A stretch of DNA of 64,000 nt. Origin: Escherichia phage vB-Eco-KMB39. Below the pieces are notes generated by a model that did no database searches, was not told the origin of the DNA, and was given only the letters and a program-made list of their open reading frames with translations. A program made the position numbers and the translations under genes. Below are positions 4,784 to 28,147 of the stretch, piece by piece. Each line of letters begins with the position of its first letter. Position 1 is the stretch's first letter. The DNA lies in the sequence record OR539219.1, one strand, 5' to 3'.

Positions 4784-4995
4784 GCATTCATCAACTTAGC
4801 CGCTTCAAGAGCTGCATCTAGTGAATCAAATTGATCGACATATTCAATCAATTCGCCGTAATTAGCATATAACCACCATTGGCTAAATTCATACTCAAGG
4901 ATAAATCCATTTCCTTCAATTTGAGTTAAACCAATGCCATTTGTATTTACTTCATATCCGGCAAGACGCAAATCATTGATAAGAGATTCATTCAT
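4780..4995 (-). CDS. Small hypothetical protein
   Basis: ORF with 4-nt overlap to neighbour. Confidence 0.4.
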   Translation of the reverse strand: MNESLINDLRLAGYEVNTNGIGLTQIEGNGFILEYEFSQWWLYANYGELIEYVDQFDSLDAALEAAKLMNA

Positions 4996-4997
4996 AA

Positions 4998-5324
4998 TTA
5001 TACCTTAGTAATTTTCAGATCAGCAAATTTTTTCTTGCGTTGATTTTTCATACGACGAATAGTTTTATCAGAAATTTCATGCTTTTGATAAGCTTTAGAT
5101 TCTACACCAAAAGCTTTAACATCAAATTCTGACAAGATATATTGAACCAACAATTCACGAATAGTATTTCGTCCAATTTTCTGATCATTCTGTTTCATCA
5201 TCTGATGAAGCTCTTTTTCCCATTTATCCAAAATTTGAGGAGTTACAATATCGCCTTTTTCTAGCAGAGAAACTACTTTATCATATGCATAAGAATTGAT
5301 GGCGTTTTTAATTTGAATAGTCAT
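4998..5324 (-). CDS. Hypothetical protein
   Basis: 108-aa ORF. Confidence 0.45.
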   Translation of the reverse strand: MTIQIKNAINSYAYDKVVSLLEKGDIVTPQILDKWEKELHQMMKQNDQKIGRNTIRELLVQYILSEFDVKAFGVESKAYQKHEISDKTIRRMKNQRKKKFADLKITKV

Positions 5325-5376
5325 ACATTATCCTCAATTGCGTTAAAATTTTATTATCCAAAAAGGGCCGAAGCCC

Positions 5377-5577
5377 TTAGCTAAACTGTTTGGCGCCCTT
5401 CCAGCCTTCGTACATCATTGCGGCTGATATTAATATTGCTCCTGCGCATTTTGAATATTTGTGATTCCAAAACCAGTTCAGAAAAACTTCGTCATCAATA
5501 CCTTGGGCTATCATATTTTCAAAGAACTGACGACGAGCTTCGGCAATTCGTTGCGATAATTTAGATTCAGGATTCAT
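5377..5577 (-). CDS. Small hypothetical protein
   Basis: 66-aa ORF ending inside a UUCG-loop terminator hairpin. Confidence 0.4.
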   Translation of the reverse strand: MNPESKLSQRIAEARRQFFENMIAQGIDDEVFLNWFWNHKYSKCAGAILISAAMMYEGWKGAKQFS

Positions 5578-5709
5578 TTAAATTTTCCAGTTACCATTTT
5601 CATCAATGAATTTAATCCAGTCATTTACTGACCACTTGGTCGTATCGCCTTTTGGAGCAACATTTAAAGTGTATAATCCTTGTTTAAAAAGCATTCGTTT
5701 GATATTCAT
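5578..5709 (-). CDS. Very small hypothetical protein (43 aa from ATG 5707-5709)
   Basis: ATG preceded by GAGGAAA; longer track ORF 5578-5793 overlaps upstream gene. Confidence 0.3.
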   Translation of the reverse strand: MNIKRMLFKQGLYTLNVAPKGDTTKWSVNDWIKFIDENGNWKI

Positions 5710-5716
5710 ATTTTCC

Positions 5717-6010
5717 TCAGCTGTAACGATAGCACTCGTTTGATTTGCGCTTAGCAACTCGTTGAGAAGTATTGTAATCAAAATCATCGTCAATGTAAAC
5801 TGATTTTTTCAACTTTCTTACTTCACTACGTAATTGACGATTTAGCTCATCTTTAACTTCTGAATCAATGCCTTTCATTCTACGCCATTTATCAGAGCGA
5901 AAAATGTTTTCAACCATATCTTTATGACTTACACCATCAGGAGCTTTACGCTTTCCGAAATAGTCATAATCACGCACTTTTAAATCTTTACGACGATACG
6001 TTTTACCCAT
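5717..6010 (-). CDS. Small basic hypothetical protein
   Basis: ATG 6008-6010 preceded by AGGAA; Lys/Arg-rich. Confidence 0.45.
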   Translation of the reverse strand: MGKTYRRKDLKVRDYDYFGKRKAPDGVSHKDMVENIFRSDKWRRMKGIDSEVKDELNRQLRSEVRKLKKSVYIDDDFDYNTSQRVAKRKSNECYRYS

Positions 6011-24342: not shown

Positions 24343-24528
24343 TTAAAGCGTATTCACATAAGCTATTAATTCATTTTCTTTCTTATCAAACCGATCAGCA
24401 AATTCTTCCTGCTGTTCGGGAGATAGCGGGCCGTATTCATCATAAAAGGTGTTTGCTTCTGTATGCTCATCTAGAAGTTCATGGATAAGCTCAAACAATT
24501 TATCTTTTTGTTCTTTACTCAGACTCAT
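24343..24528 (-). CDS. Small acidic hypothetical protein
   Basis: 61-aa ORF. Confidence 0.4.
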   Translation of the reverse strand: MSLSKEQKDKLFELIHELLDEHTEANTFYDEYGPLSPEQQEEFADRFDKKENELIAYVNTL

Positions 24529-24698
24529 ATATTAATTTCCAGGAGTTTTAAAATAATTCGCTTTTGCTTAAATATTTCCATAGTTAAATGATCAGTATCT
24601 TTTTGACCAATTCCAATGGCAAAACCTTTATTAGCAGCGAGTTCAATTAAATTATCAAGCTCACGTAACACTTCGTATTGTAACTCAAAACTATTCAT
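24525..24698 (-). CDS. Small hypothetical protein (57 aa; below ORF-track cutoff)
   Basis: Manually translated MNSFELQYEVLRELDNLIELAANKGF...; ATGA overlaps at both ends. Confidence 0.3.
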   Translation of the reverse strand: MNSFELQYEVLRELDNLIELAANKGFAIGIGQKDTDHLTMEIFKQKRIILKLLEINI

Positions 24699-24922
24699 TT
24701 TGGTTTACCTTCTTTAACGAAATCTGGATAAGGATAAAATCCCGAATAAAATCCTTCACCTTTATGATTGATACATCCTTTATTAGAACAATAGCACCAA
24801 TAATCGAAATCACAAGTCATTTCATCGTTGCATAAAGCAAAAACAACCGGCCACTTACACTTTTCACAGTGGGCATTTTTAAGAATACTAGTTTGGCTCA
24901 TAACCATGTAACCTTTAAGCAA
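24695..24922 (-). CDS. Small Cys-rich hypothetical protein
   Basis: Multiple CxxC-like pairs. Confidence 0.4.
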   Translation of the reverse strand: MLKGYMVMSQTSILKNAHCEKCKWPVVFALCNDEMTCDFDYWCYCSNKGCINHKGEGFYSGFYPYPDFVKEGKPK

Positions 24923-25110
24923 TATTCTTCTACATGTTGTTTACGACCTTTCTTATCAATAAAGGTATATTCAACGAATGTTCCAATGTAGTCTTTATCT
25001 ACATCATGTGGACTATTAATTGGGCATTTAGTACGGCAAATGCGTTCCCATTGACGAATAATTACTGCTTTGTTTTTAGGATCAAACGGATGCGGGTAAT
25101 GCACTTTCAT
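24898..25110 (-). CDS. Small hypothetical protein
   Basis: 70-aa ORF. Confidence 0.4.
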   Translation of the reverse strand: MKVHYPHPFDPKNKAVIIRQWERICRTKCPINSPHDVDKDYIGTFVEYTFIDKKGRKQHVEEYCLKVTWL

Positions 25111-25561
25111 AATCCACCACTATTAAATCAATATCAGGAGTAAACATGTCGATTAATTTAGAAACCTTATCCCAATCGCCGCCAGCAATACCACAACCTA
25201 TGCGTGGAATGTAAATTACCGGTTTAAACAAAAGGGTTTCTGCCTGTAGATTTAATTCTATCATGCAGTTTACTAAAGCACCATAATCAAGATTAGGACC
25301 TGGTTCGTATTGCGTATACAGGTTATAGCATATACCAAATCCCGTAGGACTATGTTTAAAAACAATAGACATATCGCCTAATTTATCACGAGAACCGTAC
25401 TCAGTAGTGGTTTTATCTATTTCTAAAATTTTGGGATAGGCTCTTGCTAATTGACCCGCTACGCCTGAACCCATAGTATGAAAACAATTGCACCCGTGCG
25501 CAATAATATTACCTTGAAGAAATAGGGCGACAATATCGCCCTTGATATATTTTACAATCAT
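25082..25561 (-). CDS. Macro-domain protein (ADP-ribose binding/processing fold)
   Basis: Motif GNIIAHGCNCFHTMGSGVAGQLARAYP resembles macro-domain nucleotide-binding loop. Confidence 0.55.
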   Translation of the reverse strand: MIVKYIKGDIVALFLQGNIIAHGCNCFHTMGSGVAGQLARAYPKILEIDKTTTEYGSRDKLGDMSIVFKHSPTGFGICYNLYTQYEPGPNLDYGALVNCMIELNLQAETLLFKPVIYIPRIGCGIAGGDWDKVSKLIDMFTPDIDLIVVDYESALPASV

Positions 25562-25905
25562 CTAGTACTCAATCCTCGATTATAAGAATCTACTAAACGG
25601 TCAACCATTGAATGACAAGCGGCTTTATCTTTTTCCTCCGCAACTGAACATTCTAGGGTATTCCACTTTTTAGCATATCGTTTTAATAATGTATCGTTTT
25701 TGTATCTGCTTGATTTATCTCTTTCTCCGTCTTTATATGCATATATTAATTTCTGCGCAAATTCAGCTTGGCATGCTTTATTTTTCCCACAATAATCTGC
25801 CGCAGTGCGGTTCACATACTCCCTAATTTCAGTATATGATGTATCTGCTGACGCATAAGCAGAAAATGAAATTAATCCTATACATAAAACCAAAATTTTA
25901 GTCAT
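25558..25905 (-). CDS. Secreted hypothetical protein (at the position of T4 vs)
   Basis: 115 aa with signal peptide MTKILVLCIGLISFSAYASA. Confidence 0.5.
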   Translation of the reverse strand: MTKILVLCIGLISFSAYASADTSYTEIREYVNRTAADYCGKNKACQAEFAQKLIYAYKDGERDKSSRYKNDTLLKRYAKKWNTLECSVAEEKDKAACHSMVDRLVDSYNRGLSTR

Positions 25906-26939: not shown

Positions 26940-26969
26940 ATTATACCACAGTCAAGAGGAAAAGTAAAC
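26940..26969 (-). promoter_or_regulatory. Early promoter with extended -10 (GTTTAC-N18-TGTGGTATAAT); approximate
   Basis: Near-consensus sigma70/T4 early promoter 30-60 nt upstream of regB ATG. Confidence 0.6.
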
Positions 26970-27552: not shown

Positions 27553-27730
27553 CTAAACGAATAGGTTCATGAATGCCATATCCCTGAACAGAAATTTCTG
27601 TCGTAGGATAAATTCCATCAATATCACCCATATTCCAGGCTTCATTAAATTGCTGTTCGCCTGAATTACTAAACCACTCGGCGAAAGCATTTAGCACATC
27701 TTCAGAACCTTCAATAATTATCTTTGCCAT
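27509..27730 (-). CDS. Small hypothetical protein
   Basis: 73-aa ORF. Confidence 0.4.
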   Translation of the reverse strand: MAKIIIEGSEDVLNAFAEWFSNSGEQQFNEAWNMGDIDGIYPTTEISVQGYGIHEPIRLVEYDLCTGEEVKYD

Positions 27731-28147
27731 TACAAACTCTCGGTGAAGGTACGAGCGATAACGTCGCGCTGCTGTTCCGGAGTCAGAGAGTTAAAGCGAA
27801 CTGCATAACCAGATACACGGATGGTCAGCTGCGGATATTTTTCCGGATGCTTAACTGCATCTTCCAGAGTTTCACGACGCAGAACGTTAACGTTCAGGTG
27901 TTGACCACCTTCAATTTTAACTAGTTTCACGACGCAGAACGTTAACGTTCAGGTGTTGACCACCTTCAATTTTAACTGTAGGTTGTGTTTCAATTTCAAT
28001 TTCACGGGCATGCAAACCGTAGAAAATTTCCGGGTCTACAAAAGAGTCCTCTTTAAAGGTTTTAGAGACAATAATTCGTGCTTGAATACCATCTTCAAAA
28101 TAAATAGTACCTTTATGTGTGCCTTCAAGAATTTGATATGCTTTCAT
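27730..28147 (-). pseudogene. GrcA/YfiD-like autonomous glycyl-radical cofactor gene, reading frame broken by a 55-bp tandem duplication
   Basis: N-terminal ORF 27917-28147 ends ...[18 protein letters not shown]; second piece 27730-27930 (GTG start only) encodes [62 protein letters not shown] with the RVSGY glycyl-radical motif; removing one repeat copy restores one ~120-aa ORF. Confidence 0.8.
27868..27977. repeat. Perfect tandem direct duplication, 2 x 55 bp
   Basis: Copy 1 at 27868-27922 and copy 2 at 27923-27977 are identical (AGTTTCACGACGCAGAACGTTAACGTTCAGGTGTTGACCACCTTCAATTTTAACT). Confidence 0.9.

Follow-up and report, generated by a model that had tools for sequence, protein, structure and literature searches.

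What does a macrodomain gene lodged between vs and tk.3 do for a T4-like phage, and from which lineage does it come? We addressed both questions for Escherichia phage vB-Eco-KMB39 (OR539219.1) in a window of 64,000 nucleotides, which is the whole stretch of DNA that was analysed. A first-pass annotation had described a 159-aa product at 25082-25561 with a macro-domain-like nucleotide-binding loop and had proposed that it could reverse host ADP-ribosylation-based defence or process NAD-derived signals. The open reading frame is genuine, and the string quoted at that time as the nucleotide-binding loop corresponds to residues 22-39, which form loop 1 of the active site. The gene and its active-site elements are the following:

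25082..25561, minus strand: macrodomain ORF from the ORF list, 159 aa, ATG to stop
25445..25498, minus strand: active-site loop 1, residues 22-39 (HGCNCFHTMGSGVAGQLA), with an H-x-C-N motif and GxG (G31, G33)
25310..25324, minus strand: N80-L-Y-T-Q84 motif, placed by profile alignments, Q in 122 of 122 family members
25172..25207, minus strand: phosphate-binding loop PRIGCGIAGGDW, residues 119-130, placed by sequence alignments

The macro fold, which the first-pass annotation had staked on profile searches, is recovered by sequence profiles, a structure model and two fold searches. The protein matches Pfam PF01661 (Macro) with 32 bits for a gathering score of 22 (E=1.3e-7, profile positions 2-117 of 118) and PHROG 335 at 1.4e-71. 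As a single sequence, it retrieves the solved macrodomains BT1257 (3e-10), yeast Poa1p (1.6e-9) and SCO6735 (1.1e-7) and, more weakly, Mtb DarG (4.7e-5) and human TARG1 (0.01); with a profile built from 55 family members, the same structures improve to between 1.5e-19 and 2.8e-9. The AlphaFold2 model, computed from 54 sequences with the T4 row left out of the alignment, reaches a mean pLDDT of 93.3 and a pTM of 0.88, and a Foldseek search of the PDB ranks TARG1 first (E=4.5e-10, TM 0.73-0.83). The protein displays the three-layer alpha/beta/alpha fold with a central mixed sheet, the GxG motif after strand 2 (G31-S-G33) and the second glycine-rich, phosphate-binding loop (G122-C-G124-I-A-G127-G128), with G33, G122 and G124 invariant. 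Its nearest neighbours in sequence and structure are TARG1, DarG, SCO6735/BT1257 and Poa1p, and not MacroD, PARG or viral macrodomains; a Poa1p-type phosphatase would be marked by a likeness in sequence and fold extending to the loop-1 histidine, mutated as H23A in PDB 6LFS. On the basis of the profile matches, the solved-structure matches, the model and the Foldseek result, the product is a stand-alone single-domain macrodomain of the ALC1-like/TARG1-like class. It is acidic (pI 5.0, family median 6.0), while the macrodomain of T. aquaticus DarG (9.2) and TARG1 (8.6) are basic and Mtb DarG (6.7) is near neutral. About 2,790 of the 50,697 records of our phage collection contain a homolog at E<=1e-5. 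In one record of this collection, a Microbacterium phage, a CDS annotated 'ADP-ribosyltransferase' covers a macro match (94264-94695) with 30% identity to T4 Tk.4; this CDS is perhaps a fusion of ART and macro domains, or else misannotated.

The surroundings of the gene identify both the phage and the locus. Thymidine kinase (Pfam, 1.7e-60), RegB (8.1e-69) and the SLT-domain protein Vs.1 are encoded near the macro gene and mark a T4-like phage (Tequatrovirus). Over 2.2 kb, the region is 99.7% identical at nucleotide level to Shigella phage SfPhi01 and to Escherichia phage vB-Eco-KMB42. The macro gene occupies the tk.4 position (vs - tk.4 - tk.3) as in T4 and is the positional ortholog of T4 tk.4 (adfM), which the T4 reference annotation calls 'phosphatase; contains A1pp phosphatase motif'. 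Its neighbours and putative expression signals are listed here:

25558..25905, minus strand: vs (valyl-tRNA synthetase modifier), upstream neighbour, 99% identical to T4
24898..25110, minus strand: tk.3 (DUF7202), downstream neighbour, 96% identical to T4
25558..25561, minus strand: ATGA overlap of the vs stop codon and the macro start codon, a typical translational-coupling arrangement
25573..25577, minus strand: GAGGA, Shine-Dalgarno-like and 11 nt ahead of the ATG, read from the sequence and identical in T4
25524..25542, minus strand: hairpin AGGGCGATATTGTCGCCCT, rich in GC, with a T-rich tract after it, about 20 nt into the macro ORF

T4 shows the same ATGA overlap (vs 5387..5734 and tk.4 4923..5390 in the T4 excerpt L001), an arrangement consistent with translational coupling to vs. 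The order regB - vs.1 - vs - tk.4 - ... - tk is common to T4, JS98, VR5 and AlbertHofmann, so that the regB-vs.1-vs-tk.4 order is kept in Dhakavirus and Mosigvirus, and it is comparable in the Jiaodavirus LAL003; the macro gene is probably co-transcribed with the regB-vs.1-vs block. Since a scan for sigma-70-like promoters returned 15 sites for 16.3 expected by chance, we make no firm promoter claim, and the best candidate on the coding strand (26968..26940, upstream of regB, 10/12 match plus extended TG) is only suggestive. The hairpin just inside the ORF (MFE -14.3 kcal/mol, z=-2.1), which was flagged in a terminator-like scan, is kept in T4, in the Dhakavirus VR5 with a loop change only and in the Mosigvirus AlbertHofmann while nearby synonymous sites vary, and it is absent from LAL003. 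Possible roles are those of an attenuator, of an RNA-processing site or of a linker for recombination.

Farther along the same strand, a perfect 55-bp tandem duplication (27868-27977) lies inside vs.6, the gene for a GrcA-like autonomous glycyl radical cofactor, where the resulting frameshift turns the 120-aa T4 gene into minus-strand ORFs of 76 aa (27917..28147) and 66 aa (27730..27930). The duplication is missing from the ten best database matches (226 nt versus 281 nt); its source is a private mutation or else an artefact of assembly.

Position and sequence tell different stories about the origin of the gene. Gene-by-gene comparisons were made with T4, JS98, VR5 and AlbertHofmann. Against T4, the proteins of the neighbours rI.-1, rI, rI.1, tk, tk.3, vs, vs.1 and regB are 96-100% identical, whereas the macro protein shares only 58% identity with Tk.4 over 155 aa (E=1e-70). 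Against the Dhakavirus JS98 the pattern is inverted: the macro protein is 92% identical, while RegB (59%), Vs.1 (67%), Vs (45%), Tk.3 (74%) and Tk (71%) have diverged. The divergent segment is delimited as follows:

25070..25536, no strand assigned: cassette divergent from T4, by sliding nucleotide identity and gene-by-gene comparison

Within this segment, nucleotide identity to T4 is 47-68% over 25070-25416 and 82% over 25417-25536, versus 93-100% in the flanks. A JS98-like macro protein among T4-like neighbours amounts to a Dhakavirus-type cassette in a Tequatrovirus backbone, and the macro allele is a horizontally exchanged cassette of mosaic origin. An allele with at least 95% identity to that of KMB39 is found in 276 records of the phage collection (among them the BASEL phage AugustSocin, 99.4%), and one reaching the same level of identity to that of T4 in 221, while 159 lie at 80-90% identity to T4. 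Allele classes coexist at the locus, namely the T4-type, one with about 84% identity to T4 and the KMB39/JS98-type, which is no rarer in sequenced phages than the T4 allele (276 versus 221 records). The KMB39 and T4 alleles agree at 28 of 30 family-conserved positions. They differ at 4 of 12 residues of the phosphate-binding loop and at 4 of 13 residues of the Q84 loop, and identity drops to 6/25 in residues 131-155 and to 21/44 in residues 36-79.

At its 3' end, the macro gene overlaps the start of tk.3 by 29 nt (25082-25110) instead of 4 nt in T4, owing to a four-residue C-terminal extension (PASV) of the macro protein. JS98 has the same 29-nt overlap, which is consistent with a cassette boundary at 25082-25110. 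A second mosaic patch adjoins the cassette in the tk.1-tk.2 interval (24343-24922), which is unlike T4. It holds a 61-aa ORF (24343..24528, DUF7438) that is 54% identical to T4 Tk.2, a 57-aa ORF (24525..24698) with no match in the T4 interval and a 75-aa phage zinc-binding protein (24695..24922, PF23895, 2.7e-29) with no counterpart there. In the Dhakavirus VR5, the stretch between tk.2 and tk carries a putative gene for a site-specific intron-like (homing) DNA endonuclease (positions 2135-2872 of excerpt L004), which is possibly one driver of local gene conversion in the region.

Residues H22, G23, N25, C26, G33, A35, D49, N80, Y82, Q84, G88, G122, G124 and W130 are invariant, in the sense that they are found in every homolog having a residue at the aligned position (120-122 of 122), with N25 in 120/120 and Q84 in 122/122. 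In profile alignments, Q84 falls on the catalytic lysine of TARG1 (K84) and DarG (K80) and on Gln85 of SCO6735, and N25 falls on DarG N22, TARG1 S35 and SCO6735 Asn27. A126 takes the place of the catalytic D125 of TARG1, and G122 and G124 correspond to G126 and G128 of SCO6735. The whole family, T4 Tk.4 included, is thus devoid of the DarG/TARG1 catalytic lysine, and the active site reads as Gln-type, resembling the Gln85/Asn27 pair of SCO6735 and unlike DarG. In SCO6735, the glutamine in the lysine position is required, as Q85A is inactive, and it is held by Asn27, with N27S nearly inactive; a water held by the backbone carbonyl of Val25 is proposed to start cleavage while Gln85 positions the distal ribose (PMC9411070). 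At clearing DNA of thymidine-linked ADP-ribose, this enzyme is more efficient than either DarG or TARG1; it also rescues E. coli from DarT, and its authors credit the high activity on DNA to a longer, Lys-bearing mobile loop (PMC9411070). Between Q84 and Y93, the phage protein has a loop of 9 residues, as in TARG1, with no Lys or Arg, versus 14-15 residues in SCO6735/BT1257. The SCO6735 sequence was recovered via a PDB query with BT1257 and its numbering checked against PMC9411070. An alternative placement of the SCO6735/BT1257 insertion before the glutamine, suggested by a seven-sequence MAFFT alignment, was dropped: the HMM alignment and the N-(3)-Q/K register put it after the glutamine, in agreement with the structure-based statement in PMC9411070.

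A function for such a protein is suggested by published genetics. When a T4 transposon library was challenged on E. coli with DarTG2, tk.4 was the single significant hit, and its clean knockout, according to the authors, sensitised T4 to DarTG2; the gene was renamed adfM (anti-DarT factor Macrodomain) in this bioRxiv preprint of November 2025, where removal of ADP-ribose from DNA by its product is the authors' inference, graded 'likely' (10.1101/2025.11.20.689424). T4 devoid of adfA and adfN is still DarTG2-resistant, and a further factor had been predicted (PMC11825919). An analogous phage macrodomain also named AdfM, PhiKZ gp104, frees, in vitro, a TNTC oligonucleotide of the ADP-ribose placed on it by DarT2; its active-site mutation N23A lowers activity and loss of its gene sensitises PhiKZ to DarTG2 (PMC13309987, Cell Reports 2026). 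The reversal of a host ADP-ribosylation defence put forward in the first-pass annotation matches the genetics of the T4 ortholog, obtained on a 58%-identical allele, and fits the in vitro activity of gp104. Its other suggestion, that NAD-derived signals are processed, found no support. The observation was correct, but both the gene family and its anti-DarTG2 role are already published, and what is added here concerns the swapped allele, its Gln-type active site and its separateness from the PhiKZ AdfM. In the CmdTAC paper, macrodomains appear in the reference list only.

From homology and T4 genetics, we consider it probable that the Dhakavirus-type tk.4/adfM allele of KMB39 strips DarT2-attached ADP-ribose from phage DNA and so confers resistance to DarTG2. 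The macro protein would bind the ADP-ribose that host DarT2 puts on N3 of thymine in single-stranded phage DNA and hydrolyse the bond between ribose and base, releasing free ADP-ribose, restoring replicable DNA and leaving the phage resistant. It would follow the route of SCO6735 rather than that of DarG or TARG1: Q84, held by N25, would position the distal ribose and a backbone-held water would start cleavage, with no lysine present to form a Schiff base. The KMB39 allele is expected to share both activity and target with T4 tk.4. What speaks against this proposal is that the KMB39 protein differs from Tk.4 at 42% of positions, 4 of the 12 phosphate-binding-loop residues among them, that it has neither the catalytic lysine defining DarG and TARG1 nor the longer Lys-bearing mobile loop of SCO6735, and that it is acidic.

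A second reading is, in our view, rather unlikely. Specificity may be exchanged as a cassette at the tk.4/adfM locus, whose allele classes would differ in the DarT2 variants, the base-linked marks or the nucleic acid (DNA or RNA) that they neutralise. Under the same proposal, Gln-type phage macrodomains would form a subfamily of their own, mechanistically unlike both DarG (no Lys) and SCO6735 (no extended basic loop). If it holds true, the Dhakavirus-type allele in a Tequatrovirus backbone marks a recent swap relevant to host range.

A further and still less probable explanation places the main substrate outside DarT2-modified DNA, namely uracil-N3-ADP-ribosylated RNA, Asp/Glu-linked protein ADP-ribose or the marks of the phage's own ADP-ribosyltransferases, so that the KMB39 allele may be tuned to another host system than the T4 allele. 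The loop differences between coexisting alleles (4/12 and 4/13 residues) are in line with this, and SCO6735 also acts on protein substrates (PMC9411070). Uracil-linked ADP-ribose on RNA is likewise reversed by enzymes of the TARG1 class, the Gln-type SCO6735 among them, which makes an RNA substrate possible (PMC13036486). However, no bacterial defence that ADP-ribosylates uracil in RNA was found in the literature searched, and the phenotype of the T4 ortholog is specific to DarTG2 (10.1101/2025.11.20.689424). As for marks made by the phage itself, T4 Alt and Mod modify arginine, and macrodomains of the TARG1 class are not known to cleave arginine-linked ADP-ribose.

Protection might also be mainly non-catalytic, by direct binding and inhibition of DarT2 or by stoichiometric binding of ADP-ribosylated DNA or ADP-ribose-derived molecules, but we give little credit to this scenario. 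It draws on the observation that catalytically dead SCO6735 Q85A still inhibits DarT in vitro by binding, and more strongly than dead DarG or TARG1, so that protection need not be enzymatic (PMC9411070). The missing classical lysine points the same way, as does the concentration of allele divergence outside the core active-site loop (6/25 identical in residues 131-155, 21/44 in 36-79), which could reflect co-evolution with a protein partner. On the other side, none of the 120-122 homologs departs from H22, N25, Q84 or the two glycine-rich loops, as expected of an enzyme, and the Gln-type SCO6735 is a highly active hydrolase (PMC9411070). Moreover, the protein of 159 aa has no counterpart of the C-terminal DarT-binding domain of DarG, whose profiles match at positions 2-145.

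Just as improbable is an enzyme of small-molecule ADP-ribose metabolism, as the RefSeq name 'phosphatase' implies, acting like Poa1p as an ADP-ribose-1''-phosphate phosphatase or as an O-acetyl-ADP-ribose deacetylase, with a role in nucleotide or RNA-repair metabolism and not in counter-defence. Such names were transferred by homology, many macrodomains have a weak A1pp phosphatase activity in vitro with no known physiological role, and the sole significant conditional phenotype of T4 on the DarTG2 host mapped to tk.4 (10.1101/2025.11.20.689424). Finally, a sponge for Thoeris or other NAD-derived signals and an eraser of the phage's own Alt/Mod marks were set aside, as no supporting evidence was found for either.

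Erasure of DarT2 marks, our preferred reading, would have practical consequences. DarTG systems have been found in pathogenic E. coli, Klebsiella, Pseudomonas and M. tuberculosis, which makes erasers of DarT marks carried by phages relevant to the host range of therapeutic T4-like phages. The gene would be better annotated as adfM/tk.4, macrodomain anti-DarTG2 factor, than as 'phosphatase' or 'hypothetical protein'. In addition, with a Gln-type active site, mechanistic assumptions based on DarG as well as DarG inhibitors may not transfer to this family.

Among known systems, T4 Tk.4/AdfM (NP_049723) is the direct reference. It shares with the KMB39 protein the locus, the ATGA overlap with vs, the ribosome-binding site, the first 14 residues, a single macro domain of about 155-159 aa and 28 of 30 conserved positions, including H22, N25 and Q84. 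It differs in the phosphate-binding loop (IGAGIGKGNW in T4, IGCGIAGGDW in KMB39) and in the absence of the four-residue C-terminal extension, and the DarTG2 phenotype is known for the T4 allele only. AdfN (T4 gene 30.3) follows the same strategy against DarTG1, in which a stand-alone antitoxin-like ADP-ribosyl glycohydrolase erases DarT marks (PMC11825919), although it has an unrelated NADAR fold, acts on guanine-linked DarT1 marks and is encoded elsewhere in the T4 genome; in the examined part of the KMB39 window, no AdfN counterpart was found.

Cellular models are the Gln-type, ALC1-like SCO6735 of Streptomyces coelicolor (PDB 5E3B) and BT1257 of Bacteroides thetaiotaomicron (2FG1/2AFC), with an identity of 25-27%. 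H22-G-C-N25 corresponds to H24-V-C-N27 of SCO6735 and N80..Q84 to N81..Q85 in the same N-(3)-Q register, and the loop PRIGCG(I/L)AGG-x-W is shared, PRIGCGIAGGDW being nearly identical to PRIGCGLAGG(T/K)W of SCO6735/BT1257. In contrast, the mobile loop after the glutamine is 5 residues longer in SCO6735 and carries Lys89, which the phage family lacks, and its Lys34 is Ser or Ala in the phages. SCO6735 also belongs to a cellular host, where it is DNA-damage inducible and affects antibiotic production (PMC9411070). Human TARG1/OARD1 (PDB 4J5R/4J5S), the top Foldseek match, has the same loop length after the catalytic position, but its K84/D125 catalytic dyad is replaced by Q84/A126 and identity is about 20%; TARG1 reverses thymine- and uracil-linked ADP-ribose (PMC13036486 for uracil).

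With DarG of DarTG2 (PDB 5M3I, 5M31, 7OMU), identity is about 25% and K80 is replaced by the invariant glutamine. DarG is the sole PADLOC match (5.5e-7) and the best of three NCBIfam matches (1.6e-6); these profiles match over positions 2-145 of 329-338 only, with 27.6 bits for an equivalog cut-off of 250 bits. The C-terminal DarT-binding domain of DarG (a protein of about 330-350 aa) is absent from the 159-aa protein, and no darT gene lies beside the macro gene, whose neighbours are vs and tk.3. An orphan copy of DarG was rejected on account of the missing lysine, the score far below the cut-off and the greater proximity of BT1257/SCO6735. Capture from a DarT operon was likewise rejected, as the closest cellular homolog examined, from Pelagimonas (40% identity), is stand-alone without a DarT neighbour at the one locus inspected. 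We predict that the macro protein works like the macrodomain of DarG without being a DarG.

PhiKZ gp104, from a chimallivirus, offers a further parallel. It is also a stand-alone phage macrodomain countering DarTG2, in which the equivalent asparagine (N23) is important (PMC13309987). However, gp104 is Lys-type, with FPTK where the KMB39 protein has LYTQ (FPTK was read directly from the gp104 sequence, as hmmalign shifted gp104 by two columns at this motif), and it is 35% identical to Mtb DarG (E=1e-30), whereas its similarity to the KMB39 macro protein is almost undetectable (BLASTP E=0.006 over 23 residues). It is also imported into the phage nucleus, a structure that T4-like phages lack. With gp104 in the DarG lineage and the Tk.4/KMB39 protein of Gln-type, the name AdfM, as used in the papers of 2025-2026, covers two non-orthologous macrodomain lineages that were separately recruited.
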